This document shows positions 20,791-37,982 of a stretch of DNA of 64,000 bases, piece after piece. A program made the position numbers and the translations under genes. The stretch comes from Chloroflexota bacterium (GTDB taxonomy: Bacteria; Chloroflexota; UBA11872). The notes beneath the pieces were generated by a model, which worked only from the letters and a program-made list of their open reading frames with translations, was not told the DNA's origin and did no database searches. The stretch lies in NCBI GenBank assembly GCA_965220075.1, contig OZ244806.1, forward strand, positions 2,519,925-2,583,924, written 5' to 3'. Every line of letters starts with the position of its first letter. Position 1 is the first letter of the stretch.

Positions 20791-20878
20791 TTGTCCTCAC
20801 AATAGTAACCGCGGACGGTTTTCAAACACACTCTTAGGGCAGGCCGCCCTTGCACCTGCGTCAGCTAACGAAGTTCGG

Positions 20879-22336
20879 CTACTTGTCGCCCTCGGTCGTC
20901 TCGTCTTCCTTGCCGTCGGTGTCACTGTCGTGGACCGCAACGTCCGACACGACGCCGGGGAGGTTCTTGAGGGTGCTGATGATATCGACGCCCGTGAGCG
21001 ACTGCACCAGGGCCGGGAGTTGCGCGATGGTGGCCGATACGTCCTGCGTCACCTTGCTGGCGCCGGCGCCCGCCCCGTCGGCGCCGCCGTTGCTGATCAC
21101 CACGATGCTGTCGGTCTTGGCGAGGGGCTGCGCCACGGCGCTCGCGACATCGGGCAGCGATTCGAAGAGCTGCTGGATCATGGCCGCCTGGCCGTACTGC
21201 TTCCAGGCATCGGCCTTCTTGTTCATCGCCTGGGCCTCCGCGAGGCCTTGGGCTCTGGTAGCGTCCGCACCCGCCTCACCCCTCGCTCGGATGGCGTCAG
21301 CATCGGCTTGTCCACGGAGCCTGGTCGACTCGGCTTCCGCCTGGGCCTCGGCAATGACGCGTGCGCGCTCGCCCTCCGCCACCGTCTCGAGCTTGTATCG
21401 TTCCGCTTCGGCCTCGACGCGTGTGCCGCGGCGGTGCCCTTCCGCGCGCAATTCCAATTGGTCGCGCTCGGCCTCGGCGGGACGCCGGATCGTCGCGTCT
21501 AGCTCGCGCTCCCGCCGGGCGACCTCCTGTACCTGGACCTCAATCTGCTTTTGCCGCTCGACGACCTCGACTTGCGACTCTTCCGACCGGATTCGCTGGC
21601 GGGTTATTGCCTCTTGAAGGGAGTAGGCCAGCTCGGCCTCGGCGCGCCGGGCGTTGACCTGCTGATCGTACGCGGCTTTTTGCGTCTGGAAGTCGCGTTC
21701 GGACTCGGCGATAGCGGTGTCGGCGGCGAACCGTGCCGCCTGCTGCTCCTGATCGGCCTGGGCTTGCTTAATGCCGGCGTCGCGTTCGGCCTGGGCCTCA
21801 CCGATGGCCGCGTCCCGCTTGACCTCCGAGGTCCGTCGTACGCCGAGGGCCTCCAGATAGCCCTGCTCATCCTGGATGTCGCGAATCGAGAAGCTGACGA
21901 TTTCCAACCCCATGTTGGTCATATCGGTTGCCGCCACGTCACGCACCTGCTCGGCAAAGGCCACGCGGTCCCGGTATATATCCTCGACGGTCATCGTGCC
22001 TAGAATGGCCCGTTGCTGACCCTCAAGGGTTTGTAGGGCAACCTCCGCGATCTCCGTCACGCTCTTACCCAAGAACTGCTCTGCCGCGGTGCGTATCGCG
22101 TCCTCGCTGCGTCCGACTTTGACCTGCGCGATGCCGTCGACTGAGACCGAGACGCCCTCCTTGGTGTAGACCCTGGCCGTGTTGACCGGAAGGGTCATTA
22201 CTTCCAGGGAGATCATCTGTGCTTTCTGCAATATCGGCAGCACGAACATCCGCCCGCCGACCTTCAGCTTGGGCCTAGTGCTTCCACCCGACACGATCAG
22301 CGCATGGTTCGGTCCTACTGTATGAAAGCCCGCCAT
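20879..22336 (-). CDS. Flotillin/SPFH (band 7) family protein
   Basis: 485 aa. N-terminal SPFH domain followed by an extended Ala/Glu-rich coiled coil (EAQAERDAGIKQAQADQEQQAARF...). Encoded immediately downstream of nfeD. Confidence 0.9.
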   Translation of the reverse strand: MAGFHTVGPNHALIVSGGSTRPKLKVGGRMFVLPILQKAQMISLEVMTLPVNTARVYTKEGVSVSVDGIAQVKVGRSEDAIRTAAEQFLGKSVTEIAEVALQTLEGQQRAILGTMTVEDIYRDRVAFAEQVRDVAATDMTNMGLEIVSFSIRDIQDEQGYLEALGVRRTSEVKRDAAIGEAQAERDAGIKQAQADQEQQAARFAADTAIAESERDFQTQKAAYDQQVNARRAEAELAYSLQEAITRQRIRSEESQVEVVERQKQIEVQVQEVARRERELDATIRRPAEAERDQLELRAEGHRRGTRVEAEAERYKLETVAEGERARVIAEAQAEAESTRLRGQADADAIRARGEAGADATRAQGLAEAQAMNKKADAWKQYGQAAMIQQLFESLPDVASAVAQPLAKTDSIVVISNGGADGAGAGASKVTQDVSATIAQLPALVQSLTGVDIISTLKNLPGVVSDVAVHDSDTDGKEDETTEGDK

Positions 22337-22369
22337 GTGTTCCCCCAGATGAGCTGCTACGGATCCGTG

Positions 22370-23731
22370 TTATGCATCGCTCGAGGCTCCCGGTCCATCG
22401 TACAGCTTTTCGACTTTGAGAACCCGTCCATACACCCCGACGACTCGCACCTCATCGCCTTCCTGGATCGAGACCCCGGGATCGGTTGACGCCGACCACT
22501 CCCTGTCCGACACCTTGACCCTGCCTGCCGGATCGAGGTCGGTCAGGGCCATGCCCGATGCTCCTTCCAGCTGCATCTCCTCCGCGGTTTGAAATCCGGT
22601 CGAGACCCCTCCGCCATGGATAGCCAGGCGGATGAACAGCACCCACGCCGCGGTCATGAGTCCGGACGTCACCGCAATCATGATCGGGCTCACCATGATG
22701 TTCAGCTCCGGGAGATCCGATGGGCTGAAGAAGTTGCCGAACAGGAAGATCGACCCGAGGACGAAAGAGACAATTCCGCCCGCACCGAAGAGGCTGAATC
22801 CCGGCGCCGTCGTCTCCGCATAGAACAGTCCCATGGCAAGGGCAAGAAGCACCAGGCCAACCCAGTTGCCCGGCAGATTGAAGAATCCGACGAAGGCCAG
22901 GATGAGCGAGATAACGCCGACGACCCCTGGGCCGATCATGCCGGGAACGGACCACTCCGCCCAGAGAGCCAACCCCCCCAGCAGGAACAGCACCAGGGCC
23001 AGGTTGGGATTCGCGAGGATCCCCAGCAGGTGTTCCAGCAGCGTGCGGCCAAGCTGGTCCACTCGTGCCCCGGCGGACTCGACCACCACCGGCCCGGCCG
23101 CGGTCTCGGCGGTGCGGCCGTGGAGTTGCTCCAGCATGGTGTCCATATCGGGAGCGATGAGGTCGATGATTCCGACGTCCAGGGCCTCCTGCTCCGAGAA
23201 GGCCTTGGCTTTCGACACGGTTTCCTCCAGGGCATCGCCGTTGCGATCCCGGATCTCGGCAATGCTGCGGATGAAGGCCCGGGTGTCCTCGTCCACCTTG
23301 CGCGCGAGTGTCTCGGGAAGGTCGACGCCGCCGGGGCCGACCGCCGCGGCCGCGCCGATGTTGGTGCCCGGCGCCATCACCGCGAAATTCGCCGCGGCTG
23401 CAACAAAGGTGCCCGCCGAAGCCGCTCTGGCGCCTGAAGGCGAGACGTACACCGCGACGGGGACGTGCGCTTCCAGGAGCCGCTCGACGATTTCGCGGGT
23501 CGAGTCCACGAGGCCGCCCGGCGTGTCCAAGCGGATGACGGCCAGCGATGCGCCGTCGCCGCGAGCCTTGTCGAGTCCCCGCGCAACGTGAGCGGAGGAC
23601 AGCGGCTCGATGGCTCCGTCGACCTCGATGACGAGCACGGTCGGCCCATCTGCCCGTGCCGGGTCGGTGGACTGCCACGCCAGAAGCACGGAGGCAGCAA
23701 CAACTGCCGCGACGGCAACCAGGCGACGCAT
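22370..23731 (-). CDS. NfeD-family membrane-bound ClpP-class serine protease
   Basis: 453 aa. Signal peptide, ClpP-like domain (VIEVDGAIEPLSSAHVARGL...SAGTFVAAAANFAVMAPGTNIGAA), multi-TM region and C-terminal OB-fold. This is the canonical NfeD-flotillin operon partner. Confidence 0.9.
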   Translation of the reverse strand: MRRLVAVAAVVAASVLLAWQSTDPARADGPTVLVIEVDGAIEPLSSAHVARGLDKARGDGASLAVIRLDTPGGLVDSTREIVERLLEAHVPVAVYVSPSGARAASAGTFVAAAANFAVMAPGTNIGAAAAVGPGGVDLPETLARKVDEDTRAFIRSIAEIRDRNGDALEETVSKAKAFSEQEALDVGIIDLIAPDMDTMLEQLHGRTAETAAGPVVVESAGARVDQLGRTLLEHLLGILANPNLALVLFLLGGLALWAEWSVPGMIGPGVVGVISLILAFVGFFNLPGNWVGLVLLALAMGLFYAETTAPGFSLFGAGGIVSFVLGSIFLFGNFFSPSDLPELNIMVSPIMIAVTSGLMTAAWVLFIRLAIHGGGVSTGFQTAEEMQLEGASGMALTDLDPAGRVKVSDREWSASTDPGVSIQEGDEVRVVGVYGRVLKVEKLYDGPGASSDA

Positions 23732-24018
23732 GACCGCCCTCCAAGCGGGAGGACCCAGGCGTCTTATCGCCTGGAAATGCCAGCGTCCATATTAGTGGAG
23801 ACGCGGCCGCTCCGGTCAACGAGCCTTCCAGCGGCCCGCGACGACGGGCGCGAAGGCGCCCTCCGCAACGTCACGCTTCGCATCCAGGGCATGGCCGGGC
23901 GTGCGTCCGGGTCGGCCCATGGCTAGCGGGTACAGCCGGGTGACCCGCGCTCACGTTGACACTCGGAAAGCCCCCTCTCTACAGTCGAGGCGCTTGCGAA
24001 TCGCGCGCGTGGCACGCC

Positions 24019-25023
24019 ATGTCTGAGGAGACCGCCGGCCATCGGATTCTGATCACGGACATCGCCTGGCCGAGCACGGCGCCGGAGCGCGAGGTGCTGG
24101 CCGAGCTCGACGCGGAGGTCGTCGAATCCGACAGCCCCGACGAGGACCGCCTGGTCGAGCTGGCGCAGGACGTGACCGGCATCCTGGCGTGCTTTGCCAA
24201 GGTCACCGAGCCGGTGATCGCGGCCTCGCCCCGCCTGCGGGTGGTCGGACGCACCGGCGTGGGCACGGACAACATCGACGTGGACGCCTGCACGCGGCGC
24301 GGCATTCCCGTGACCTACGTGCCCGACTACGCCATCGAGGAAGTGGCCGACCACGCGATGGCGCTGCTGATGGCGTTTTCCCGCAAAATCGTGGCGCGGG
24401 ACCGGCTCACCAAGGCCGGTCGCTGGGAGACCAAGCCCGCGCGCCCCATCCACCGGCTGCGCGGACGCACGCTGGGGATCTTGGGCTATGGCCGCATCGG
24501 CCACGCGCTGGCGCTGCGCGCGATTCCGCATGGGTTCAAGATCCTGGTGTTCGACCCGTACATCACGGCCGACCGCGTGGCGGACATCGGGGCCGAGCTG
24601 GTGAGCAAGGAGCGGTTGCTGGCCGAATCGGACGCGATCTCGGTGCACGCCCCGCTCACACCCGAGACGCACCACGTCATCGGCGAAGCCGAGCTGCGCG
24701 CGATGAAGCCGGAGGCCTGTCTGATAAACACCGCGCGCGGACCGCTGGTGGACGAATACGCGCTGGCGCGGGCGCTGTCCGAAGGCTGGATCGCGGGCGC
24801 CGGCATCGACGTGCTGGAAGCCGAGCCGCCGCCGGAGGGCCACCCGCTCCTCGCGGAGCCGAACGCCATCGTCACGCCGCACGCCGCCTTCATGTCCGAG
24901 GAGTCGGTGCTCGAGCTCGAGCGCCGCGCCGCATTGGCCGTCGTCCGCGTCCTCCAAGGCCGCATGCCGGAGTTCATCTGGAACCGCGAAGTGCTGGACC
25001 AGGTGAGCCTGGCGAAGGACTAG
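24019..25023 (+). CDS. D-isomer-specific 2-hydroxyacid dehydrogenase (PGDH/GyaR-like), NAD-binding
   Basis: From ATG 24019. GILGYGRIGHALALRA (GxGxxG), catalytic RGP...NTARG...D...E...H arrangement and VTPHAAF motif. Confidence 0.9.
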   Translation: MSEETAGHRILITDIAWPSTAPEREVLAELDAEVVESDSPDEDRLVELAQDVTGILACFAKVTEPVIAASPRLRVVGRTGVGTDNIDVDACTRRGIPVTYVPDYAIEEVADHAMALLMAFSRKIVARDRLTKAGRWETKPARPIHRLRGRTLGILGYGRIGHALALRAIPHGFKILVFDPYITADRVADIGAELVSKERLLAESDAISVHAPLTPETHHVIGEAELRAMKPEACLINTARGPLVDEYALARALSEGWIAGAGIDVLEAEPPPEGHPLLAEPNAIVTPHAAFMSEESVLELERRAALAVVRVLQGRMPEFIWNREVLDQVSLAKD

Positions 25024-25184
25024 CGGCGCTATCGGGCCGACGGCGGGATAAACCGCAGCGGCGTCGGGGCGCAGCGCCAGCCCCTCGGCAGGTGGCTCAT
25101 CGAGAACATGCCACGCGGGGCTGAGCTCGAAATACCCGACCGCCGTTCAAACCGTACGATCCCGTTCAGCGACGCACACGACGA

Positions 25185-25421
25185 GTGAGCCGCTATCTCC
25201 TCCATGCCAACGGAGTCTCGGAGACAATCCGCGGCGCTCCGCACCCCGGTGTCGTCACGTTCCTTGCCGAGCACGAGGATCTTTGGCTGTCGTCGATCGT
25301 GATCGATGAGCTGGAATACGGCGTGCGGCTCTACCGAGGACTCGGCGTCTTCATGCTGCCTGCTCTAGAGAGCAGGGCGGCTGGGATTCAGCTGGTTCGG
25401 TCGAGGTCTTGCTCAGGTTGA
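25185..25421 (+). pseudogene. VapC (PIN-domain toxin) N-terminal relic
   Basis: LLHANGVSETIRGAPHPGVVTFLAEHEDLWLSSIVIDELEYGVRLYRGLG aligns with the VapC/FitB block LLDTNVVSELxRxxPxPxVxxWL....LxLSxITxxELxYGV. The catalytic Asp is replaced (HAN for DTN) and the C-terminal half is missing. Confidence 0.5.
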
Positions 25422-25486
25422 GCGATTCGTCAATCGGACTCTCAAGAGATGTATGACTATGCTCAATTGCAGTTCTGAACCTGCCA

Positions 25487-27163
25487 TTATACTGGCTTAT
25501 TACCGCCATATTCTCGCAGGTTAGTGAAAGGCTCTACCACAGGATGAGGCCTAGGAGGCAGCATTACAATAACCCTTTGTCGTGCTCGGGAAAGTGCCAC
25601 GTTTAGCAACCGGGACGTCTTCATGAAGGGCTCTCGCTCAGATCCGAAGTAGTCATCGGTCCGGAACACATGAATGACGGTGTCAGCCTCGCGCCCCTTT
25701 GTTTGGTGGTAGTTCATCAACTTCACCGTACCGCGCTCGGAGTAGTCCAAATCGATGAGGGCCTCGACGCGGCTGCGCTCGACGATCTCACACAACTGCC
25801 GCACGGCTTCCTCTGATACGGGAATTTCCCGAAGCGGCCGCAAGAGGCGCCTGAAGTGGTTAGCAGCTCTATGCCACGGACGATTGCCAGCCCTGATGCC
25901 GAGACCCTCCCATGACTCTATGGCGACCTCTGCCAATTCCCCCATCGTGCCATCTACAGCTGCAGCAAGGGCACCCTCGAGCTGCTGTAGCGATTCCTTC
26001 AAGAGACCTGGAAGACTAACCCTGCCTGCGAGCGCCCTAGCCATCTCGGGGACTCTGCGCTGCCTCGTGGCTGCGGTCAGAAACAGCCCAAGCGATTCGC
26101 GGAACTCTTCACTAGTCGTTATCCCAAGTGCAAACGCACATTGTGCTGCCATCGATGCCATCGCCTCTGCGTGAGCCTCTGGTATACCCACGAGAACGCA
26201 GTCGATACCCGCAGCATCTAGTTGCTCGGCCAACTCGGCTACCGCAGCATTGGAGTGGGCGAAGATACCGACATCACGGGAATGTTGTCTCCGCGCGTCC
26301 CTGATAATCTCACCAAGTAGGCCCGAATGGTCGTCAGGGCTCACATCGAAATGGATGACGAGGCGGCCACTAGTCAAAGCTTCAACGACCGCCTCATGGT
26401 TAAACAGGCGCTGGCGTATGGCCTCGGCAACAGCTGGAATTGCTCCTGATGGGTCGCGATGAGATCGCGGGGAGAGCTCAATCTCCTTGTCCACCCACTC
26501 CCGCAATTGGCGGAATCTCTCTGGCGAAACGCCCTCGATGAATGTATAGATCATTTGGTTTTCGTCACCCAGCAGGAGCAGCCTGCGCGACGTGATCGTC
26601 TGAAGAAGCTGCCACTGCTCTGCGCTTGTATCCTGGGCCTCGTCACAGATCACTAGACCCCAGCGGGTCGCAAGGAGCCGCCTTACACGCTCGCTACCAT
26701 TGACAATCGCCATCGCACCAGGAATTAAGTCAGCGTATCGGAGCTTGGTACGGTCCTGACCCAGCAGCTTGCTGCGCGCCTCCGACTGAAGTGAGGGCAG
26801 AGCCAGCCCGTAGCCCGCGTACCTTCCATACCCTTTCAACACCCGATAGGCGAGTCCATGGAATGTGAGAACTTCAACGCGATCCGCACAACCCACGAGT
26901 ACTCCCGGCGAGCGGCTCATGATCTGGGTTACCGCCGAGCGCGAAAATGTCAGGAACAGGACTCTCGGGGACGGATTGTCTTCTGAGGTCTCAAGAAAAG
27001 CGCGCGCAGCCCACAGCGCCGTCGTAGTCTTACCAGTTCCCGGTCCGCCCAGAACAAGCGTTCTGTCATTCGAGTGGAGGATCGCATTCACGACCTCGCG
27101 CTGCCTACAGTCAAGGTCATCAATTCGCATAGTCGTCCTAGCCGGATTAAGTACCGGCTGCAA
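25487..27163 (-). CDS. gajB: UvrD/Rep-like superfamily-1 helicase (GajB-like)
   Basis: 558 aa. Walker A LVLGGPGTGKTTT, motif II VICDEAQD, C-terminal VALSRARQRVIV. Overlaps the upstream OLD-like gene by 17 nt (operon). The region is lower GC than flanks. Confidence 0.8.
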   Translation of the reverse strand: MQPVLNPARTTMRIDDLDCRQREVVNAILHSNDRTLVLGGPGTGKTTTALWAARAFLETSEDNPSPRVLFLTFSRSAVTQIMSRSPGVLVGCADRVEVLTFHGLAYRVLKGYGRYAGYGLALPSLQSEARSKLLGQDRTKLRYADLIPGAMAIVNGSERVRRLLATRWGLVICDEAQDTSAEQWQLLQTITSRRLLLLGDENQMIYTFIEGVSPERFRQLREWVDKEIELSPRSHRDPSGAIPAVAEAIRQRLFNHEAVVEALTSGRLVIHFDVSPDDHSGLLGEIIRDARRQHSRDVGIFAHSNAAVAELAEQLDAAGIDCVLVGIPEAHAEAMASMAAQCAFALGITTSEEFRESLGLFLTAATRQRRVPEMARALAGRVSLPGLLKESLQQLEGALAAAVDGTMGELAEVAIESWEGLGIRAGNRPWHRAANHFRRLLRPLREIPVSEEAVRQLCEIVERSRVEALIDLDYSERGTVKLMNYHQTKGREADTVIHVFRTDDYFGSEREPFMKTSRLLNVALSRARQRVIVMLPPRPHPVVEPFTNLREYGGNKPV

Positions 27164-28880
27164 CCGCGACCGCGTCCTCTAGCAGCTGGACCGCCACGGC
27201 AGGAAGATTGTCTGACGGCAGTGAGTCAATGAACGGTCCATGCAATGAGTTGCTCTTTATGAAACGAATCGCCGTTTCAGTGATCTCCGATCTGGTGAGT
27301 ACGTCGAGGTTCCGAGGCTCAGCTAAGCCTGCGGCCGCTGCAACGTCCTTGAGCGCCTGAATTAGTATTCCTTCGGGCACGCCATTCACAATGGCCGCCT
27401 CAATGGCGAAGTCGTCTGGAAGCCGAACAACCGCATCTGCTGAATTGCCGTGGGTTTGCAAGTACTGCTGCACCTCTCGACGAGTGTCACCGTCGACCAC
27501 CGCGACTGCACGTAGACCAATGTCTCGGGCCGCATCCGCCAGCTTCAAGACGGCGGCATAGCCACCGGAGCCTCCCGATCCCGCGTTGACAATCGAGACT
27601 CCCCGTGTCGCGGGAAGCGCCAAGCCCTGCTCCGCAGACATCCGCAACGCGAGGTTGTGCAGTGCGGCAAAATCATTAGGTCCTTCCACAATGACTACTG
27701 AACGGTAGCTGAGAGCTGGAAGCAGATTGCGATGCCAGTGCTTGGCTGCGACATTCTCAGCCTTGGTCGTTGGCCGCCTGCCTTGGCGGACAAATCGCTC
27801 TCCATTCCCGTCTCTCCCTAGCCTGACGACCTCCTGGGGGTCGAATACCTCCGCGACAGCTGACACCCTAGTGGTCACCCACGCCTGTCCCGCCAACCTT
27901 CGGATGACGGCTGTCATGTGTGCAGATGATGCAGCATCTAGCCCGTCGCCGAGATCGTCGACGGCTAGGACTGGACCGGCGCCTGACGAGAGGGCCAGTG
28001 CCTCAGCTATGCGAAATAGCGAGGCGGCAGTTGACCCGCGCCGCCACGCCGGAAGGCTGCCTGCACCGTCACCAAGGTCAAGGGACGGACCAAGCGAGCG
28101 GAGAAGCCCACTTGGCGATCCATCTTCAGGCGCAAACTGGAAGAGTTGCGATACGTCTGTTGTCGAGAGTCCGAGTAGGTCCCTGAGCGGGGTGACTACA
28201 TCTTCAAGGGCCTCATTGATTTGGTCTGAACCGGTGAACTGCCCAGCGGCCTGAACGACTGCCTGCACGTACTGGGCAATCGCCGTCGCAAAGTCGTCGC
28301 CTCCAGCCCTGTCGATCACGCGCCGGAATGCGCCGCGAGGCCCAAGGTCGAGGATCCGTCCTTCACTCCAGCGCAGACGATTGAATCCCAACCTCTCAAC
28401 ATCCCGGCGTCTGATGTGGAGGAACGAATCGGAGGTTGGATCAGATTCCTTTGGATAGAAGATCCACTCTTCGCACCGCTCCTCCTCAAGAATCCACCTG
28501 GCCCAGTACTCCAGCCGCAGAACCCATTCAAATCGATCTTGGTCGACTTCTTCTATGTCCTCGATTTCTGGAAGGAGGCGGCCCTCACACCTGTCCCACA
28601 GTTCCAAATGGTCGAGGAAGTCCTGTTCCAGCTGCTCGCCAAGTCCACCGAGGGTGACCCCGATCCGAATGGGCCGGGTCGTGATTCTGTTATGGAAGTC
28701 AATTTCAGTGGTAGTCCCGGTGGCCCTGGCGTCGGAATCAAGTACGCGTGCCAGCGCTTCAATAAGGTCAGTCCTCTCCGCACCCGGTTCGCCCATGACC
28801 ACAACGTGACCTCTGGGCGCGACCCGGAAGTCGGAGAAGCCTCGAAATCGCCTTATGTGGAGTTCTTTAACATGCATCAA
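27147..28880 (-). CDS. gajA: OLD-family ABC-type ATPase with C-terminal TOPRIM nuclease domain (GajA-like; P-loop degenerate)
   Basis: 577 aa. N-terminus IRRFRGFSDFRVAPRGHVVVMGEPGAERTDLIEAL has the layout of OLD/GajA ATPases, but the Walker A reads GEPGAERT instead of GxxxxGK[ST]. The C-terminus has TOPRIM glutamate and DxD motifs (VVIVEGPNDFAALHNL, AVAVVDGDTRRE). Confidence 0.8.
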   Translation of the reverse strand: MMHVKELHIRRFRGFSDFRVAPRGHVVVMGEPGAERTDLIEALARVLDSDARATGTTTEIDFHNRITTRPIRIGVTLGGLGEQLEQDFLDHLELWDRCEGRLLPEIEDIEEVDQDRFEWVLRLEYWARWILEEERCEEWIFYPKESDPTSDSFLHIRRRDVERLGFNRLRWSEGRILDLGPRGAFRRVIDRAGGDDFATAIAQYVQAVVQAAGQFTGSDQINEALEDVVTPLRDLLGLSTTDVSQLFQFAPEDGSPSGLLRSLGPSLDLGDGAGSLPAWRRGSTAASLFRIAEALALSSGAGPVLAVDDLGDGLDAASSAHMTAVIRRLAGQAWVTTRVSAVAEVFDPQEVVRLGRDGNGERFVRQGRRPTTKAENVAAKHWHRNLLPALSYRSVVIVEGPNDFAALHNLALRMSAEQGLALPATRGVSIVNAGSGGSGGYAAVLKLADAARDIGLRAVAVVDGDTRREVQQYLQTHGNSADAVVRLPDDFAIEAAIVNGVPEGILIQALKDVAAAAGLAEPRNLDVLTRSEITETAIRFIKSNSLHGPFIDSLPSDNLPAVAVQLLEDAVAVAAGT

Positions 28881-29224
28881 TGGGCATTGGCAGCTTCGTG
28901 GTCTGAGAGATTGCTAACTTGAGGCTGCGCCTCATGAGCCTATCTTGAGAACGAAGTGCAAGCAACCCGCTGGCCAGATGCGAAGCTGGCCTCGTCGTCG
29001 CAGAAGGCGGCCCCTATGCGACGCGTGACAGATTGCCCTAGCGGTCCCGGACCAGCAGGACTTCGCTGAGGCCCCGGGCGATGCCGAGTCGGTCGCCGCT
29101 CGACACATTTCCCAGTTGGGCTGTGTCTTGGCCACCAGGGGCACGGGCGGCGAAGCAAATCATAGGGCAACCACGAGAGTCGCCGTTACGGGTGCGTCAG
29201 GGCAGGGGCTGAACCGCAGCGGCG

Positions 29225-29563
29225 CTAGACACAGCCGGTGGCGACGGCGAGGGCGCGGCAGACCTGGCGCATCTTGGTTGGGCTGAGGGTGCCGACGTAG
29301 CGGTGCAGCCGGCGTTGCTCGACGGTTTGCACGTGGTCGAGGTTGACGGCGGAGTCGTGCCGCAGGCCCTCGTCCGCGCCGACGACGACCTCGCTCGGCA
29401 GGCCGCGGATAGTGGACGTGATCGGCGCAACCATCGCTGTGGGCAGCAGCGGCAACACTTCCTGGCGCGTGAGGACGACGACCGGGCGCCGCTTGTCGGG
29501 CCGCTCGAAGCCGTAGTGCCAGATCGCGCCGCGGCGCGGCCCGGCGTCTAGTCCTCGGGCCAT
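29225..29563 (-). CDS. mazF: Type II toxin, PemK/MazF-family endoribonuclease
   Basis: 112 aa. GAIWHYGFERPDKRRPVVVLTRQEV...VAPITSTIRGLPSEVVV...SAVNLDHVQTVEQRRL matches MazF/PemK. Overlaps the upstream antitoxin gene by 16 nt. Confidence 0.85.
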   Translation of the reverse strand: MARGLDAGPRRGAIWHYGFERPDKRRPVVVLTRQEVLPLLPTAMVAPITSTIRGLPSEVVVGADEGLRHDSAVNLDHVQTVEQRRLHRYVGTLSPTKMRQVCRALAVATGCV

Positions 29564-29781
29564 ACACCTGCCTCAGCCCATCCCTCGAACTCGGCGTCAA
29601 GCCCGCCGGACGGGCGATAGCCCGCGCGGTAACGGAGGGCGATGCCCTCGGCGTCCTTGCGGGCCAGGTAGGCGGCCGCCGCCTCACGCAGGACGGCCGA
29701 GCGGTCCCGCTCCCGCACCGCCGGATGCGCGTCGAGCCGCGCGAGCAGCGCCTCGTCGAATGTCACCTGTATGGGCTTCAT
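29548..29781 (-). CDS. Ribbon-helix-helix antitoxin (MazE/CopG-like) paired with the MazF-like toxin
   Basis: 77 aa from ATG 29781. MKPIQVTFDEALLARLDAH... is an RHH N-terminus. The longer ORF in the track is rejected because it extends through an AT-rich promoter. Confidence 0.75.
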   Translation of the reverse strand: MKPIQVTFDEALLARLDAHPAVRERDRSAVLREAAAAYLARKDAEGIALRYRAGYRPSGGLDAEFEGWAEAGVWPED

Positions 29782-29787
29782 AGCTAT

Positions 29788-29811
29788 AAGAATACTATAT
29801 ATCTTATACAC
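29788..29811. promoter_or_regulatory. AT-rich palindrome TATAAGA-N10-TCTTATA just upstream of the antitoxin start (candidate TA operator/promoter)
   Basis: Inverted repeat within the only strongly AT-rich 30 bp of the region, 7 nt upstream of the antitoxin ATG. Confidence 0.35.
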
Positions 29812-29974
29812 ATCACCGCCCAGTAGCTGCGCATCGGCACTTGCCGCCCCTGCAGACATTCCGAACGCAAGTGAGGAATCTAGAGCGGCCGCGGCACGTT
29901 CCCTGCTCCTTAGATTCCTCGCGTTGCTCGGAATGACGAGATGGGCGATCCGAGCGTACGGTGGACGCTCCCAG

Positions 29975-30012
29975 GCTGCACGCAGCCTGGGCCACCGGAC
30001 CTGGCTTTTATT
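29975..30012 (+). terminator. REP-type hairpin (CCCAGGCTGCACGCAGCCTGGG) followed by T-tract CTTTTATTTTT; intrinsic-terminator-like
   Basis: Perfect 10-bp stem with a 2-nt loop, followed by a U-rich run on the plus strand. Shares the ...GGGCCACCGG tail with the REP family. Related hairpins lie at 50247-50275 and 50411-50440. Confidence 0.4.
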
Positions 30013-30104
30013 TTTGAGTCGAAACAAACGCCCGAACACATATAAAAACTCCCGCCCCAAAGGACTGGACCTCTGTTGGGCGCACCCACTGTGCGCTGCT
30101 CGTT

Positions 30105-30283
30105 TGCCTGTCATTCCGGCCTTGCGCCGGAATCCAGGCCCGGGCCGCCGGGCACAGTCTGTGTAGGGGCGCCCCTCGTGGGCACCCTGGGGTACCGGCA
30201 GCGAATCCGGGGACAGGGCAACCACAAGGGTTGCCCCTACGCGAATCCCACCTCTGGGGCTACCACGAGGGTTACCCCCCATT
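30105..30283. repeat. Structured repeat/MITE-like segment abutting the IS481 left end (hairpin CATTCCGGC-CTTGC-GCCGGAATG, then CCAGGCCC core)
   Basis: Shares the hairpin plus GGAATCCAGGCCC core with repeats at 33083-33180 and 47281-47381. Additional internal inverted motifs CCCCTCGTGGG / CCACGAGGG. Confidence 0.45.
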
Positions 30284-31536
30284 TGTGAATTGTCCAGACC
30301 GGGGACATGGTGAACACATCTAGGCGGACTCGCGCAGGTCGAGAGAGCCCAGGTGGTCGGTCATGAAGATGGCGTCCCAGCAGCCGTCGGTGGGCCTGGG
30401 CCGAAACGCGACCGGCTGGCCGCGCAACGCCTTGGGCAGGCGCAGTTGGCGGCCTTGGAAGGAGACCCAGCCGCCCTGCTGGACCTTGCGCACTTGGTCG
30501 GCGGGCTGGTAGGGCAGCGGCGGCAGGTGCGCCGGGTAGGGCCTGGGGCTGATCTGGTAGCGGCTGGCCGGTACGGCCAGACCCAGGCTCTCGTGCGGGC
30601 GCACGTGGTTGTACTGGTGCCGCCAGGCAGCAAAGGCAGCCTGCCAGGCGGCCAGATCGGGCTGTGGCGGCTGGCCCGCCAGTTCGCGCTTGAGGGTGCC
30701 GTGGAAGCGCTCGTCCTTGCCCAGCGTCTGCGGGTGGTAGGGCCGGCTGTGGCTGACCGCCACGCCCAGGCGCCGCAGCCAGACGGTCAGCGGGGTGTAG
30801 GGATGGGCCGGATGGTTGCCCCAGGGACTGCCGTTGTCGACCAGCCGGCGGTCGGGCAGCCCGTAGCGCTGGAAGGTGGCGATCAGGTGGGCGCGCACCG
30901 TGGCGGTGCGCTGATTGGGGCAGGCCACCAGCCCGAGCGCGTAGCGCGAATGGTCATCGAGGATGGTGAGGGGATGGCAGCGGCCGGGGCCGCAGGGCCA
31001 GCCGGCTTTGAAGTCCATCTGCCAGAGGGCGTTGGGGTAGGGCTGCTCGAACCGCTGGTAGGCGCGCGCCTGGCCCGCCCCCTGGGCGGGGTCCAGGGCC
31101 CCATGGCGACGCAGGATGGCGCTGATGGTGGAGACCGCCGGCAGCGGCTGGAGGCCCTGCCGGGCCAGCAAAACGCGCAGCTTGCGCGCGCCCCAGGCGG
31201 GATGCTGCGCACGCAAGGCCAGCACCGCCTGCTCCATCGCAGGGGCCGTCTGCCCCGGACTGTGGTGCGGTCGCCGCGCGCGCTCCGCCAGCCCCGCCGG
31301 GCCTTCCGCCGCATAGCGCTGCAACCACTTGTAGGCCGTGGCGGGCGCAATCCCGAAGCGCCGGCAGAGCGCCCGCCGGTTCGCCCCAGGCTGTCTCGCC
31401 AGCGCCACAAACTCGGCCCGTTGCTCCCTCATCGACCGGTCCTCAAACGGCACGTCATCAGGCCCCCGTCCTCTGCGAATGTGTTCACTATGTCCCCGAA
31501 CATGTGTTCATGATGTCCCCGGTCTGCACAGAATCA
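30284..31536 (-). mobile_element. IS481-family insertion sequence (about 1.25 kb) with terminal inverted repeats
   Basis: IR-L 30284-30319 TGTGAATTGTCCAGACCGGGGACATGGTGAACACAT. IR-R 31502-31536 reverse complement TGATTCTGTGCAGACCGGGGACATCATGAACACAT (23/25 identical in the core). Encloses a single DDE integrase-core transposase. Confidence 0.8.
30320..31453 (-). CDS. IS481-family transposase (rve/integrase core domain, DDE)
   Basis: 377 aa. N-terminal HTH (GIAPATAYKWLQRY) and integrase core with HSRPYHPQTLGKDERFHGTLKRE (the third-carboxylate region typical of IS481/IS3-type rve domains). Confidence 0.9.
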   Translation of the reverse strand: MPFEDRSMREQRAEFVALARQPGANRRALCRRFGIAPATAYKWLQRYAAEGPAGLAERARRPHHSPGQTAPAMEQAVLALRAQHPAWGARKLRVLLARQGLQPLPAVSTISAILRRHGALDPAQGAGQARAYQRFEQPYPNALWQMDFKAGWPCGPGRCHPLTILDDHSRYALGLVACPNQRTATVRAHLIATFQRYGLPDRRLVDNGSPWGNHPAHPYTPLTVWLRRLGVAVSHSRPYHPQTLGKDERFHGTLKRELAGQPPQPDLAAWQAAFAAWRHQYNHVRPHESLGLAVPASRYQISPRPYPAHLPPLPYQPADQVRKVQQGGWVSFQGRQLRLPKALRGQPVAFRPRPTDGCWDAIFMTDHLGSLDLRESA

Positions 31537-31626
31537 GGGCGGGGTTGAACAGGTGGGACGTCAGCCGTCGGAGTCTGTATGAGATACTCGCTCAATGGCG
31601 CCCCATAGGTTCTCATAGACATTTGT

Positions 31627-32091
31627 ATGGATAACAACTTCCAAAGGAAAGGCTCAATCTCAAACGCTCATATTGGGCATGACTTTGAAGATCATGCACA
31701 GGAACACCTTCGCAGTTGCGGCATCTCACTTAGAAAGAACTATTCTGTTAAAATTGGAGTTTCTAAAGGCAACGATAAAGAACGCCATTTTGATCTCGGA
31801 TCAGATATCCCGCCAGTACTATTCGAGTGTAAATCTCACACATGGACAGAAAGCGGAAATACTCCAAGCGCTAAGATTACTGTTTGGAATGGGGCCATGT
31901 ATTTCTTCCATATTGCGCCGCCTGAATATCGCAAAATCCTGTTCGTGCTAAGGGATTATTCCGCTAAAAAGAGGGGAACTCTCGCGCAATACTACGTCAG
32001 AAACTATATCCATCTGATACCTGATGATATCGAGATTTGGGAGTTTGACGTCGCCAGAGGCGTAGAGATCCTGCGTGATACGCTGACCTGA
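31627..32091 (+). CDS. hypothetical small protein with PD-(D/E)xK nuclease-like motif, AT-rich (foreign)
   Basis: 154 aa in a roughly 42% GC segment directly after the IS. FDLGSD...VLFECKSH gives a D...E-x-K signature. No other recognisable domain. Confidence 0.5.
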   Translation: MDNNFQRKGSISNAHIGHDFEDHAQEHLRSCGISLRKNYSVKIGVSKGNDKERHFDLGSDIPPVLFECKSHTWTESGNTPSAKITVWNGAMYFFHIAPPEYRKILFVLRDYSAKKRGTLAQYYVRNYIHLIPDDIEIWEFDVARGVEILRDTLT

Positions 32092-32121
32092 TGGACATCT
32101 CTCCCCACGGACCGCTCGCCT

Positions 32122-32892
32122 ATGCCGCTGACTGAGGCCCAGATCGCCCGCTTCCGCGTGGACGGCTTCCTGGTGGTGGAGGACGTCGTCCCGCCGGACC
32201 GGATGGCGGAGATGCACCGGCGCATCTCCGCCATCACCTCCGCCGCCGGCATGGAGGATGCGGAGCGCATGGGCATGCAGATTGAGCCGGATGCCGCCGG
32301 CGCTGCCGCGTTGCCGCGGAAGCTGAACGAGCTGGCGCCGCATGACGCCGTTTTCCGCCGGCACGCCGAGATGCCGGAGTTGCTGGACATGGTGCGCCAG
32401 CTCACTGGCGGACCGCTGCGTCTATATGCCGATCAGGCGTTTCTCAAGCCCCCGCGGCAAGGCAGCGCCAAACCCCCGCATCAGGACAACGCCCACTTCG
32501 GCGTGGACCCGCCAGACTGGGGCGTGACCGCGTGGTGCGCCCTGGACGATGCCACGGTGGCCAACGGCTGCATGCAGTACATCTCCGGGTCGCACCGGTT
32601 GGGCAACGTGCCGCACGAGTGGATGGAGGGGACGACCCATCTCGTACCGCACGGCGTCGAGTTGGCCGCGCCCGTCCACGCGCCGGTGCGCGCGGGTGGC
32701 GTGATCTTCCACCACCTGCTCACGCTGCACATGTCGGCGCCCAACACCAGTGGCGACTGGCGGCGGGCGTATGCCTGCCACTACATCCGCACCGACGCTC
32801 GGCACGCGGACGAGGAGCCGATCAAGGCGAAGCTCGGAAAGGAGCACCCGCTGGGTGGCGGGGCAGAACCATCACCCCATCCCTTGACCTAA
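32122..32892 (+). CDS. Phytanoyl-CoA dioxygenase (PhyH) family Fe(II)/2-oxoglutarate-dependent oxygenase
   Basis: 256 aa. FRVDGFLVVEDV..., HQDNAHF (HxD iron ligands), GCMQYISGSHR, and the second His in IFHHLLTLHMSAPN. Confidence 0.9.
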   Translation: MPLTEAQIARFRVDGFLVVEDVVPPDRMAEMHRRISAITSAAGMEDAERMGMQIEPDAAGAAALPRKLNELAPHDAVFRRHAEMPELLDMVRQLTGGPLRLYADQAFLKPPRQGSAKPPHQDNAHFGVDPPDWGVTAWCALDDATVANGCMQYISGSHRLGNVPHEWMEGTTHLVPHGVELAAPVHAPVRAGGVIFHHLLTLHMSAPNTSGDWRRAYACHYIRTDARHADEEPIKAKLGKEHPLGGGAEPSPHPLT

Positions 32893-32943
32893 CCGAGACT
32901 TTCGCGTATCCCCGCGCCATTCCCGCGAAGCATGTCCCGCGCA

Positions 32944-33180
32944 AGGAGACCTTTGCATAACTGGTCGACACCCCACTCGCAAGCCTCGGATCACCTGTCC
33001 ACCATGTCTCCGGTCTGGACACAAGGGAGAGGGGATAAGGCCCGCTCTCCCGCCTCCGCTGGAGAGGTTACGCAAAGGTCTCCGCAAGCGGGGAGCCGGA
33101 ATCCAGGCCCCACCCAACCTGGAACTGGGTGAGGTTCTCCCCACACATCCTGGGCCTCGCCGGGTTAGGCAAACGTCTCC
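32944..33180. mobile_element. Tandem MITE-like elements carrying the 16-bp terminal repeat GGAGACCTTTGCRTAA shared with the IS5-family IS at 60442-61632
   Basis: L-type end GGAGACCTTTGCATAA at 32944-32959. R-type ends TTACGCAAAGGTCTCC at 33068-33083 and TTAGGCAAACGTCTCC at 33165-33180. The internal core GGAATCCAGGCCCCACCCAACCTGGAAC...ACATCCTGGGCCT...CCGGGTTAGGCAAAC is conserved with the 47261-47381 copy. Confidence 0.6.
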
Positions 33181-34057
33181 AACGGGGAGACCGAGACGGC
33201 CGGTTCGCGAACCGCCCCCTCGGGGGAGATGAGGGCGGGACGCCTTGGTAGATGGCGAAGCCGAAGTTCTCCTGGAGGAGTTCCAGCTTGTGCCCGTCCC
33301 AACGCCATAGGTGTTCGCAGCTGGAGCCGGCTCGGGTACCCCACAAGTCACCGACAACATGCACGCGGAAGTCTTGCGGGTTCATCGCGGGATACGCCTG
33401 CTGCGCTGCTCCCAGGGACGTGCGCGGCCAACCTTCAATGCCCCCGGGGTCATCACCGCTGTCATCGTCGTCTGCTTCCAGCTCATCCTCATCAAAATCG
33501 TCGTCGCCCGTATCCGGCTGAGGCCCATCCTGGATGGGATGGGCGAAATAGCTCCAGCGGTGCACGCAGAACTCTGCGTAGTCGAAGCGGGCGTGATCCG
33601 GTTCGCCCCGGATCACGTCTAGGTGCGTTGTCCCATCAACTATCTGATCTAGCAGCTCCTGATCGAGATTCTCAAGCTCGGTATGCCACCGCTGTGGGCG
33701 CGAGGCCTCTTGTTGGAGCATAAGCTGATTGAACTCCGCGAACTCGCTTTGCAGCAGACAAATGACGGGGTTCGGCGGGTCAGCGGGCAGAAGCTCCCGC
33801 GCAGCGACGAGGCCGGGCCAGTTGGTGGAGAACATGATCGTGGGGATGTCCTCAGCACCGCCGAAGATGCGGCGCTGGCCCTGAATCCGATTCAGGCCGG
33901 CCTCGTCGTTCCAGCCCCAGTGGTAGAAGTCGCTGCCGATGATGCGGCGCTGCTGGTCATCCTCGGCCGAGAGAGAGGACCGGTCTGGAATCGGGTCGCG
34001 CTGACGTGCACGTACGGCAAAGGTCCTCAGCTCCGCGATCCAGGTGCGCCTATCCAT
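33068..34057 (-). CDS. hypothetical acidic protein (329 aa); C-terminus and stop codon supplied by the MITE
   Basis: Long ORF with an Asp/Glu-rich linker (DTGDDDFDEDELEADDDDSGDD). The last ~40 codons and the TAA stop lie inside the repeat, suggesting the native 3' end was replaced by the insertion. Confidence 0.5.
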   Translation of the reverse strand: MDRRTWIAELRTFAVRARQRDPIPDRSSLSAEDDQQRRIIGSDFYHWGWNDEAGLNRIQGQRRIFGGAEDIPTIMFSTNWPGLVAARELLPADPPNPVICLLQSEFAEFNQLMLQQEASRPQRWHTELENLDQELLDQIVDGTTHLDVIRGEPDHARFDYAEFCVHRWSYFAHPIQDGPQPDTGDDDFDEDELEADDDDSGDDPGGIEGWPRTSLGAAQQAYPAMNPQDFRVHVVGDLWGTRAGSSCEHLWRWDGHKLELLQENFGFAIYQGVPPSSPPRGRFANRPSRSPRWRRLPNPARPRMCGENLTQFQVGWGLDSGSPLAETFA

Positions 34058-34327
34058 GGGTATATCCCCACGCTACACGAGTACCGGTCGGGCCGACGCC
34101 GCGAACGGTGCGATACCGAGCATAGATACCCAGGGTTGTCGACGCCGACCTCCGTGCTCGATCACCGCGTGGGAGGCGGGGGCGTTGACGGGCGAGCGCC
34201 GGTATCCGATGCCTGGGAGCCGTTCAGAAACGCCCTCGACCCCAAGAGGCGGCTCGCATAACCAGGGCGGAGACGCCGCCCTGACGCCATTGCCATGGGT
34301 CGGAGCCTTAGGGAGCTTCCGACGTGT

Positions 34328-35497
34328 CTAGCCGGGATAGTCCCCCAGGGCGTCCGCGGCGGCCTCGATGTCCGACGCGTCGTTGAAGGCGTGGAAGCAA
34401 AAGCGCACGGCCGTGTAGCCGTCCGCGGCCCGGCACAGAATGCGGTGGGCCTTGAGGCAGTGGGCGGCCAGCGGGGTCCCGGAGACGCCCTCCAAGCCGA
34501 CTGTGAAGATTCCGGAACGCACGGCGCCTTGCTCGGGCGTGTTGATGCGGGCGCCGGGAACGTCGCTGAAGACGCGGCGGGCATCGGCCGCGAGCGCCGC
34601 GCTGCGCTGCTGGATGGCTTCCAGGCCCAAGTCGTTCAGCAGTCGAATCGAGGCGCGCCAGGCGGCGTAGAGCGCGTAGGGACGAGCGCCAAACTCGTAG
34701 CGCTCGGCGGTCGGGTGCAGACGGAAACGGCCCGGCGGGAAAGCGGAATCGGCCGCCGCGCCGACGCCGCTGCCCCAGGGATGCAGGCGTGCCTGGGCAT
34801 CGCGCCGGACGTACATGGCGCCCACGCCGTACGGCCCCATGCTCCACTTGTAGGCAGGGAAGGCCATGACGTCACAACCAAGCTGGCGCACGTCAGCGGG
34901 GCAGGCGCCGAAGGATTGCGCGGCATCCACCACGGTGACAACGCCGCGTTCGCGGGCCAGCGCGGAGACCCCGTCGACCGGCAGCACGATCCCGCGCTCC
35001 GTGGTGACGTGGCTCAGACAGATCGCGCGCGTGTTGGCCGTCATTGCTGCCTCAAGGTCGCGCAGGAAGGCGTGGTCGTCGCCGTCGGCTTCGATCGCGA
35101 CCAGCTCCAGACCGAGGCAATCCCGTAGCGTGAGCCAGGGGAGATAGCCGCTGGGGTGCTCCTCAGCGGTGAGAATGACGCGGTCGCCGCGTTGCAACTG
35201 AAGCGCAGCGGCCACGAACGAGATGGCCTCCGAGACGGCGCGGATCAGCGCGATCTCGTCCGGCTCCGCGCCGAGCAGCGCGGCGATCTCGCTGCGCAGG
35301 GCGCGCAGTTCGGCGTTGTAGACGTCAACCAGATCGGGGTTCGTGGTCGTCATGACCGCTTCGCGGTCGTAGAAGGCTTGCTGCAGGTCGAGCGTGGCTT
35401 GCGGGGTCGGCGCAACGCCGCCGGAGTTCAGGCAGCGGTAGTGGCGCAGGGCCGGGATCCCCTCGCGCAGTTCGGTGAAGGTGTTGGTGTCAACCAT
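34328..35497 (-). CDS. Class-V aminotransferase-fold PLP enzyme (cysteine desulfurase/isopenicillin-N-epimerase-like)
   Basis: From ATG 35497. VDAAQSFGACPADVRQLGCDVMAFPAYKWSMGPYGVGAMYVR contains the PLP-lysine region of the SufS/NifS/CsdA family. Confidence 0.85.
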   Translation of the reverse strand: MVDTNTFTELREGIPALRHYRCLNSGGVAPTPQATLDLQQAFYDREAVMTTTNPDLVDVYNAELRALRSEIAALLGAEPDEIALIRAVSEAISFVAAALQLQRGDRVILTAEEHPSGYLPWLTLRDCLGLELVAIEADGDDHAFLRDLEAAMTANTRAICLSHVTTERGIVLPVDGVSALARERGVVTVVDAAQSFGACPADVRQLGCDVMAFPAYKWSMGPYGVGAMYVRRDAQARLHPWGSGVGAAADSAFPPGRFRLHPTAERYEFGARPYALYAAWRASIRLLNDLGLEAIQQRSAALAADARRVFSDVPGARINTPEQGAVRSGIFTVGLEGVSGTPLAAHCLKAHRILCRAADGYTAVRFCFHAFNDASDIEAAADALGDYPG

Positions 35498-35912
35498 GGG
35501 TCGGGGGTACGTCAATCCAGCGGCGTGTGCCGGCCGCTTCAAGGGCGGCATCGATGACCTGCTGTATGCGGAGTCCGTCCATCAGGATAGGCGGTGCTTC
35601 GCGGTTCTCCCGAATGCAGTCCACAAACCCAAGCCTTATGCGCTCGCCGAAGTACGCAGGGGTGCGGGCGCGATCGGCGTCGTCCAGTGGCAGTCCCGGG
35701 TCGACAAATTCAGCAAAGCGCCCCAGCCGGTGGATCATGGCCCGCAGCACGCCGTCGGTCAAAATGCCGGCGCCACGCTCCCGATTCGGGCCGGCGATGG
35801 CTGCTACGCCGGCGTTGGGCACCGTATGGAGTCCTTGCGCGCTGTTGCAGGGCATTCGGCGAGCGCATGGCCGCAGATGGCGGCGGTCTAGACCTGAAAT
35901 CGTGTGCCGGAA

Positions 35913-35957
35913 CCCACACCCGGAATTGAACCGGGGACCTCGTTCTTACCAAGGACT
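35913..35957 (-). repeat. 45-nt direct repeat of the 3' half of tRNA-Thr(GGT), anticodon loop to acceptor end (putative attR of an integrated island)
   Basis: CCCACACCCGGAATTGAACCGGGGACCTCGTTCTTACCAAGGAC versus the genuine tRNA at 56526-56601 CCCACACCCGGAATTGAACCGGAGACCTCGTTCTTACCAAGAAC (about 43/45), in the same orientation. No 5' half is present, so this is not a functional tRNA. Confidence 0.7.
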
Positions 35958-35959
35958 TC

Positions 35960-37666: not shown

Positions 37667-37674
37667 TTTCGTAG

Positions 37675-37980: not shown

Positions 37981-37982
37981 CT

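Follow-up and report, generated by a model that had tools for sequence, protein, structure and literature searches.

The 64,000-nt stretch of DNA analysed here (the window) belongs to a Chloroflexota bacterium (contig OZ244806.1; positions follow the numbering of the whole stretch). Its part between 25 and 33 kb, which carries a Gabija-type gene pair, is very probably a strain-variable defence slot overlaid by unrelated small mobile elements, and was not acquired as one island. The gene map of this part was rebuilt from the list of open reading frames (ORFs) and from profile searches against Pfam, NCBIfam, PADLOC and PDB. A sequence-only reading made earlier had listed a truncated VapC, an OLD+UvrD cassette, a MazF/ribbon-helix-helix (RHH) pair, a structured repeat, an IS481-family insertion sequence (IS) and a nuclease-like ORF, all of which were found at or near the places it gave. 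Its family assignments were upheld for the VapC relic, the Gabija-like pair, the MazF/RHH pair, the complete IS481 element and the nuclease-like ORF. What finds no support is the single lower-GC island that it drew between a dehydrogenase gene and a PhyH gene, as the MazF/RHH pair, the repeats and the adjacency of MazF/RHH to PhyH are common to relatives and of host composition. Every element of the locus is of a known kind, and the only unexpected points are the family of the nuclease-like ORF (ORF154) and a GajA clade with Arg in its Walker A motif.

The variable slot and its cargo

The window was compared with three related loci, all of them, like the window, metagenome assemblies. L003 and L004 are Chloroflexota metagenome-assembled genomes (MAGs) found by scanning species-representative genomes with the dehydrogenase (95 and 93% aa identity, respectively, by tblastn), while L176 was recovered by a search with PhyH and lies on a contig from a different ENA sample accession. 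The genes and segments concerned are the following (GC3, GC content at third codon positions):

23956-25023, plus strand: D-2-hydroxyacid dehydrogenase (Pfam 2-Hacid_dh_C, 6e-60)
25185-25421, plus strand: relic of a VapC/FitB-type PIN toxin, 78 aa (PDB 2h1c, FitB, E = 0.02; NCBIfam VapC, E = 0.15)
25242-29223, no strand: lower-GC, strain-specific Gabija segment, delimited by blastn breakpoints (GC 0.587, GC3 0.61)
25487-27130, minus strand: gajB, UvrD-like superfamily 1 (SF1) helicase, 547 aa (PADLOC GajB, 6e-52; Pfam UvrD-helicase, 7e-27)
27147-28880, minus strand: gajA, class-2 OLD-type ABC-ATPase/TOPRIM nuclease, 577 aa (PADLOC GajA, 2.4e-30)
29225-29563, minus strand: MazF/PemK-family toxin (Pfam PemK_toxin, 2.6e-19; 69.9 bits against a cutoff of 23.1)
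29548-29781, minus strand: RHH (CopG-type) antitoxin (Pfam RHH_1, 4.2e-7; 30.1 bits against 20.5)
29785-29808, no strand: AT-rich inverted repeat TATAAGA-N10-TCTTATA (7+7 nt), 3 nt upstream of the antitoxin start codon
32122-32892, plus strand: PhyH-family dioxygenase (Pfam PhyH, 2.8e-39), of host-like composition, downstream of MazF/RHH and ORF154 in L176 too

Window positions 20837-25241 and 29224-29860 are shared with L003 (~89% nucleotide identity by blastn, the left block aligning from 20846) and with L004 (~82%). The 3,982 bp between them (25242-29223) are shared with neither, and their counterpart is 222 bp in L003 and ~1.2 kb in L004. The 222 bp of L003 encode the C-terminus of VapC, which continues in frame from the N-terminal part, and the ~1.2 kb of L004 consist of repetitive extragenic palindromic (REP) sequences around a Y1-transposase-like ORF. 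L176, the closest strain, is 96.2% identical to the window over 19054-23824, 92.7% over 29232-30290 and 98.9% over 31531-42901. Its interval between NfeD and MazF (4790-8351 in L176) is filled by an IS5-type element, a Phd antitoxin gene and a reverse transcriptase gene, and contains no dehydrogenase, vapC or Gabija. The reverse transcriptase (501 aa) matches PADLOC Drt4 at 1.3e-165. The right edge of the slot lies within ~25 bp around the mazF stop codon (29206-29232) in all three comparisons, and the left breakpoint varies by comparison (23824 for L176 versus 25241 for L003). Conserved flanks therefore enclose differing defence cargo, Gabija in the window and DRT4 in L176, among four genomes, and four fillings of one interval with a fixed right edge are the signature of a variable defence slot, not of a single island. 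Within the locus, the Gabija segment alone behaves as strain-specific cargo. The DRT4 gene of L176 is itself preceded by a Phd/YefM antitoxin gene for which no toxin was called (L176:6237-8127).

Two points weigh against calling the interval a hotspot. No recognised defence system is present in the slot of L003 or L004, which are two of the four states, and with only four related loci, all metagenome assemblies, few genomes stand behind the term. No integrase or mobile-element vehicle was recognised in the slot. In the more distant L005-L008 synteny around the dehydrogenase is lost, hence they are of no use for extending the hotspot analysis. Variable defence slots between core genes have been described in Pseudomonas and Escherichia coli (PMC10250203; PMC10121019). 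Like the core defence hotspots of P. aeruginosa and the defence-island integration sites of E. coli, the locus has flanks that stay the same, NfeD/flotillin to the left and MazF to the right, and differing cargo. Unlike them, its right flank is a toxin-antitoxin pair and not a housekeeping gene, its left breakpoint is not constant, and it is known from four metagenome-derived genomes of an uncultured lineage.

The remains of vapC give the best view of how the slot may have been filled. A complete PIN toxin is a fold of ~130 aa with conserved acidic catalytic residues. The vapC of the window is truncated, as the sequence-only reading had proposed. No more than its N-terminal third is left, homology to the FitB N-terminus being confined to residues 5-50; the C-terminal half is missing, and there is no match to the Pfam PIN domain. 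The motif LLDTN has become LLHAN, so that the first catalytic Asp, now His, is lost; the ORF is a relic and not a working PIN toxin. Homology between the window and L003 ends at 25241, inside the vapC frame, and the remnant in L003 is a different one, with N- and C-terminal parts kept around an internal in-frame deletion. Since L003 keeps the vapC C-terminus that the window has lost, a simple deletion would not lead from either state to the other, and the two are different wrecks of one ancestral vapC. The frame at 25024-25188, which is kept in L003, ends in NRTIPFSDAHDE before a stop codon whose TGA overlaps the vapC GTG start (GTGA), and it may be a C-terminal remnant of the VapB antitoxin.

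A slot bounded by the flotillin/NfeD block on the left and by the stop codon of the resident MazF/RHH pair on the right would account for these states. Its ancestral filling was probably the 2-hydroxyacid dehydrogenase together with a VapBC pair, and in this genome a foreign, lower-GC gajA-gajB operon would have replaced the C-terminal part of vapC; for each event, the polarity of gain versus loss is what we infer from the comparison. The converse, that Gabija is the ancestral state here and that each relative lost it on its own, is improbable. Deletions and replacements do happen here, as the in-frame vapC deletion in L003 and the lack of even the dehydrogenase in L176 illustrate. However, gajA and gajB (GC3 0.61 each, against ~0.9 in host genes) are unadapted to host composition, the state of vapC permits no simple deletion in either direction, three independent losses would be needed, and the closest GajA besides the source record is only 77% identical and lies in a different context.

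Still less probable, and to be given very little credence, is the proposal that positions 25185-32091 arrived as one horizontally acquired defence and mobile island, through a single insertion between the dehydrogenase gene and PhyH. It draws on the presence of defence, toxin-antitoxin and mobile genes within 7 kb and on a mean GC below that of the flanks. The sequence-only reading, which made this proposal, had named the same gene content with uniform composition in syntenic genomes as evidence against it; the related genomes differ in content at this locus, so the proposal does not fall on that ground. The fall in GC is real as well, yet it resolves in the GC/GC3 profile into two separate patches, 25242-29223 (GC 0.587) and ~31531-32100 (GC 0.44-0.54), with host-like DNA between them. 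GC is host-like or higher in the MazF/RHH pair (0.71-0.72), the IS481 element (0.71) and PhyH (0.69), and GC3 is 0.90 in the dehydrogenase gene, 0.90 in mazF, 0.85 in the antitoxin gene, 0.90 in the IS481 transposase gene and 0.87 in PhyH, against 0.45 in ORF154. The MazF/RHH pair, at host-like GC3, is present in all three relatives. L176 has MazF/RHH, the REP cluster, ORF154 and PhyH side by side although it carries neither Gabija nor IS481, and the IS481 insertion is separately datable by an empty site. Nor is the dehydrogenase a stable flank, as it had been taken to be: it has no match in L176 and hence lies within the variable segment in that comparison.

That the low-GC segments are artefacts of assembly or binning, foreign contigs having been attached to a Chloroflexota MAG, is hardly credible: metagenome assemblies underlie the source and every relative, and composition changes abruptly at 25242 and ~31540, but ORF154 has identical junctions in L176, which comes from another sample accession, the left Gabija junction lies inside the vapC frame with ~30 more FitB-homologous codons beyond it, and an identical GajA over 95% of the query is found on a record from a 3.1-Mb contig (P0121).

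Outside the locus, lower-GC stretches (0.54-0.60) occur elsewhere in the window, at 36000-40000 and 62000-64000; the former is ~99% identical in L176, where sulfatase and GMC-oxidoreductase-type genes are called in it. At 33068-34057 (minus strand) an ORF of 329 aa includes a D/E-rich, acidic stretch and has a GC3 of 0.75, below that of its neighbours. It has no match in Pfam, NCBIfam or PADLOC and a weak one to PHROG 17530 (E = 0.0025), and in its L176 counterpart only a 196-aa gene is called. An Rfam search of 24900-33200 at E<=1 returned no match.

The Gabija pair and the toxin-antitoxin border

The OLD+UvrD cassette had been read as Gabija-like, and the PADLOC matches of both genes bear this out: an OLD-type nuclease, GajA, is paired with a UvrD-like helicase partner, GajB. 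The GajA profile (PDLC04168) spans residues 1-514. GajB has intact motifs I (GGPGTGKTT) and II (DEAQD) and shows 73% identity to L093 GajB in a gapless alignment, and an alignment of the region indicates that it probably starts at the ATG at 27130 and not at the TTG at 27163. In L092-L095, gajA-gajB pairs with a 4-nt overlap adjoin the gene of a type I restriction subunit (HsdR), and DNA homology of the window to this HsdR-adjacent cassette is limited to 25509-28903, i.e., to the two genes.

GajA was aligned with 93 full-length homologues (among P0122-P0240). The TOPRIM Glu399 is invariant and the DGD motif at residues 463-465 is conserved. ABC ATPases, among them GajA of Bacillus cereus, carry the Walker A Lys. 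In the clade of the window this position is Arg in 93 of 93 homologues, the P-loop (residues 30-37) reads GEPxAGR[ST], and the Walker B region is DDLGD, so that the canonical Walker A motif GxxxxGK[ST] is absent as a deviation of the whole clade, to which the window copy (GEPGAERT) adds one private substitution. For Gabija, the ATP site of GajA has been described as canonical and highly conserved (Antine et al., PMC10781630). GajA tetramers and GajB were found to form a complex in which the TOPRIM nuclease, inhibited by nucleotides, cuts phage DNA (PMC10781630; PMC10568477).

The pair resembles Gabija of B. cereus VD045 in being a two-gene operon of an ABC-ATPase/TOPRIM protein followed by an SF1 helicase, both matching the PADLOC models, and in having the TOPRIM Glu, a DxD motif and helicase motifs I and II. 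It differs in the Arg and the DDLGD region of its clade and, in the window copy, in a G35E substitution, the loss of seven C-terminal residues and the lack of a gajA/gajB overlap. By analogy with B. cereus, GajA tetramers and GajB helicases (GajA4:GajB4) would cut phage DNA through the TOPRIM nuclease, which would be gated by nucleotide levels through the ATPase-like domain, and anti-phage activity of the window pair is presumed on the same analogy.

Several features of this particular GajA speak against a fully working system. Its Pfam OLD-like TOPRIM score (22.3 bits) is just under the cutoff of 23.2. Glu35 stands at a P-loop position that is Gly in 92 of 93 homologues. A CAA to TAA nonsense codon strips the last seven residues (QSGLVQL in L093), including both positions conserved in at least 95% of homologues there (Gly in 91/93, Gln in 89/93), and also breaks the ATGA of the 4-nt overlap with gajB. 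Overall decay of GajA is not apparent: the window copy deviates at 4 of the 112 columns conserved in at least 95% of sequences, within the range of 0-10 among the homologues, so that there is no general erosion and only G35E and the truncation stand out. Judged from these two changes, the window GajA may have lost part of its function.

The right border of the slot is formed by the resident MazF/RHH pair. The two genes overlap by 16 nt, in agreement with the tightly overlapped pair that the sequence-only reading had described, and the overlap is identical in the gene calls of L176. By tblastn MazF is ~90% identical to its counterparts in L003 and L004 and the antitoxin is 86% identical to that of L003. 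The toxin has the PemK/MazF fold and an upstream, overlapping antitoxin gene. The antitoxin matches RHH_1 only and is not an AbrB/SpoVT-type MazE, and the score of the toxin against the NCBIfam MazF equivalog (17 bits) is so far under the cutoff (120) that it is a member of the MazF superfamily and not an E. coli-type MazF. The pair is thus a hybrid of a MazF-superfamily toxin and an RHH antitoxin. It resembles MazEF/PemIK in its PemK-fold toxin gene downstream of, and overlapping, that of a small DNA-binding antitoxin, with a palindrome by the antitoxin start, and differs from them in the CopG-type RHH fold of the antitoxin in place of AbrB-type MazE.

The AT-rich palindrome that had been noted beside the pair is present and is a candidate autoregulatory operator or promoter, at which the RHH antitoxin might repress its own promoter while neutralising the MazF RNase. 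Against this role, it is short and only partly conserved in L003 and L004, L003 having TGATATA-TGG-TATATCA instead, and no sigma-70 consensus match was found at the palindrome/promoter region. In L004 the RHH antitoxin aligns in three frames (L004:12595-12826), either as a frameshift pseudogene or through an indel in a long-read assembly.

REP doublets and insertion sequences

Between the antitoxin gene and the region beyond PhyH lie repeats and an IS, with one further repeat unit upstream of gajA:

29165-29189, plus strand: degenerate single REP unit (5 mismatches to the 25-mer consensus), upstream of gajA
29880-30148, no strand: conserved non-coding segment common to L003 and L176 (blastn); synteny with L003 ends at 30148
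30163-30281, no strand: REP cluster, with units at 30163-30187 (minus) and 30216-30240 (plus) and a degenerate third at 30257-30281
30287-30290, no strand: left copy (GAAT) of the target-site duplication (TSD), identified from the L176 empty site
30291-31530, minus strand: complete IS481-family IS, 1,240 bp, with transposase at 30320-31453 (minus) and ends TGT...ACA
31531-31534, no strand: right TSD copy (GAAT), identified from the L176 empty site
32996-33021, minus strand: solo IS481-type terminal repeat (24/26 to the left IS end, inverted; blastn 92% over 26 nt)

The cluster at 30163-30281 had been taken for a miniature inverted-repeat transposable element. This has to be abandoned, as it consists of tandem palindromic 25-mers and has neither a TSD nor terminal inverted repeats (TIRs) related to the IS481 or IS5 ends; a REPIN-like REP doublet fits better. 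The unit is a 25-nt GC-rich palindrome (consensus GGGCAACCACAAGGGTTGCCCCTAC), and the first two, inverted units fold as one long hairpin (-22.4 kcal/mol, z=-2.0). The 64-kb window holds one such doublet and two degenerate single units, and when the window was shuffled 20 times the pattern never turned up. L004 and L177 carry this doublet at unrelated loci too, and at L004:11450-12046 identical single REP units flank an ORF of the Y1-transposase (RAYT-like) type. REP/REPIN elements are known to be mobilised by REP-associated tyrosine transposases (RAYTs; PMC3116915; PMC3337134). The inverted GC-rich doublets, the long hairpin, the dispersal and the flanking of a Y1_Tnp-like gene in L004 agree with that system. 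Less typical are the single doublet in 64 kb, the marginal Y1_Tnp match in L004 (23.7 bits against a cutoff of 23, 5.6e-5) and the perfect 25-nt REP unit inside the coding sequence of the L004 ORF (translated ...GATTRVAPT...). The doublet would not be autonomous, but would depend on a Y1/RAYT transposase acting in trans for its mobility. A second palindromic repeat, of 30 nt (gcacgcagcctgggccaccggacctggctt), lies at 29969-29998 and, ~20 kb away, at 50248-50277 and 50415-50443 (100% and 86% identity); it adjoins REP doublets in L004 and is probably another REP-like family.

The IS481 element is complete, as the sequence-only reading had it. Its transposase scores 279 bits against NCBIfam transpos_IS481 (cutoff 224; 4.5e-83). 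The element ends at 30291 and 31530 rather than at the proposed 30284 and 31536, and the TIRs, given before as ~36 bp, match in 26 of 29 nt or at 82% over 39 nt. L176 aligns to the window up to 30290 and again from 31531 on, the two alignments overlapping by 4 nt; its empty site reads ...catttgtGAATcagggc..., and these exact junctions define the element as 30291-31530 with a GAAT duplication. The insertion is recent, after the divergence of the window and L176 strains. The single DDE transposase, the TGT...ACA ends, the short TSD and the TIRs, imperfect over ~29-39 bp, make it an altogether ordinary member of the IS481 family; a second full copy was looked for in the window and the other compared loci without success. 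In the proposed history it is a layer of its own, inserted very recently between MazF/RHH and PhyH.

The solo terminal repeat lies just downstream of PhyH and, together with the complete IS, brackets ORF154 and PhyH. It is also present in L176 (at 10866), a strain without the complete IS, and is the remnant of an older, decayed copy. Elsewhere in the window, an IS5/DDE_Tnp_1-type element at 60442-61632 is 93.5% identical to the copy in the L176 defence slot, and a partial IS5-type copy at 50505-50864 matches an IS in L003. The reverse alignment of this segment to L003 14137-14496 is just another copy of an IS5-type element and not an inversion. Insertion sequences appear to be plentiful in this lineage, and rearrangement extensive.

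ORF154, a solitary PD-(D/E)xK-fold protein

31627-32091, plus strand: ORF154, solitary PD-(D/E)xK-fold protein, 154 aa (GC 0.44, GC3 0.45); also in L176

The second low-GC patch holds ORF154, which the sequence-only reading had described as a 154-aa ORF of 42% GC with a D...ECK motif; the ORF and the motif (D56...E67-C68-K69) stand, and its GC is 0.44. In a database clustered at 90% it has 523 homologues at E<=1e-3, of which the best 120 are 53-67% identical, with Desulfohalobiaceae, Syntrophales and Proteobacteria MAGs as named sources, and the profile gathers at least 883 clusters at 50% identity. The names of the listed members and the RefSeq annotation that were checked all read 'hypothetical protein'. 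The AlphaFold model is of good quality by its scores (predicted local distance difference test 85.9, predicted template modelling score 0.80). The protein has, with confidence, the restriction-endonuclease-like core of the PD-(D/E)xK fold. Its residues E21, D56, E67, C68 and K69 do not vary among 28 diverse homologues (52-63% identity to ORF154) and fit the E...D...ExK catalytic pattern. Our best guess is that ORF154 is a stand-alone metal-dependent nuclease, perhaps decaying in this lineage.

In L176 the gene is found at the same junctions, with 11 nucleotide differences of which 5 are nonsynonymous (by reading of the alignment), and ORF154 hence predates the IS481 insertion. It would be an older foreign gene, whose predicted nuclease acts alone. 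In the 7 of 7 loci measured, the gene is ~7.5-13 GC points below its flanks. It was found on 3 of 72,556 plasmid records and on none of 50,697 phage records. The 130 ORFs examined around the gene at up to 85 loci include no conserved partner (antitoxin, methylase or XisI): the neighbours fall into 98 Pfam families, none of which occurs more than 3 times, with HigB, Eco57I-type methylases, GmrSD/AbiE, Fic and DUF433 as occasional neighbours.

Candidate partners and a mobile form were considered and rejected. DUF433, which overlaps the gene in L085-L087, and Fic, in L083 and L084, are each confined to a single lineage and not conserved. In L085/L086 the DUF433 gene overlaps the start of the ORF154 homologue, and in L083/L084 (5001-5926) the homologue has a C-terminal extension of ~26 aa and overlaps the downstream Fic gene by 4 nt; both are lineage-specific pairings like that of a toxin and its antitoxin. 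A direct repeat, CTCCCCAA, flanking the homologues in L001 and L002 had suggested a mobile cassette with target duplications; this was ruled out, as the upstream regions of ~80 loci are unrelated, the motif occurs in one subclade and homology extends beyond it.

Other observations count against an active nuclease. ORF154 has nothing significant in Pfam (E<=0.01), NCBIfam, PADLOC, PHROGs or PDB sequences, and its profile finds no PDB sequence even at E<=10. The L176 copy has K69N at the invariant lysine, for which reason the gene is perhaps decaying. It is possible, if rather unlikely, that ORF154 is not a nuclease at all but an XisH-like DNA-binding or recombination-directing factor, or a functionless, decaying remnant. 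Its best structural match is XisH (the fdxN element excision factor, PDB 2okf), which controls excision; a fold search of BFVD gave only generic PD-(D/E)xK similarities. K69N and the F66 of the window copy, where the family consensus is V, also speak for this reading, and no immunity or methylase partner is present that would make a free nuclease tolerable. On the other side, the invariance of E21, D56, E67 and K69 in 28 homologues argues for selection on catalysis, the family is large (the 883 clusters mentioned above), and no XisI-like partner was seen. Membership in XisH itself fails for want of a Pfam match, a PDB sequence match or a recurrent neighbour. The closest known proteins are XisH and small PD-(D/E)xK nucleases such as CdiA-CT and Tox-REase toxins and type II restriction endonucleases; ORF154 has no tie at the sequence level to XisH or to any PDB chain or Pfam, NCBIfam or PADLOC model, and is unlike them in standing alone, at ~150 aa, without XisI, immunity or methyltransferase partner.

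Returning to the nuclease reading, a more far-reaching version of it, which we consider unlikely, is that ORF154 represents an undescribed, widespread, stand-alone PD-(D/E)xK family of ~150 aa, possibly a single-gene defence or toxin module, repeatedly located in variable regions by toxin-antitoxin, restriction or defence genes. If this were true, it could be, e.g., a nuclease that responds to modification or damage and works without a cognate methylase or immunity protein. Two side results may interest specialists. One is this large, unnamed family of solitary PD-(D/E)xK proteins, which goes undetected with current defence and domain libraries; the other is the GajA clade with invariant Arg in place of the Walker A Lys, which bears on nucleotide sensing by the ATPase-like domain. 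As for the slot, it offers a natural example of defence turnover at one chromosomal position, Gabija versus DRT4 in a strain 96-99% identical. Its breakpoints are known to the base pair, its fixed border is a toxin-antitoxin pair, and the IS481 insertion beside it is dated. Defence hotspots have until now been described mainly in Proteobacteria; the present case extends that picture to an uncultured Chloroflexota lineage without altering it.

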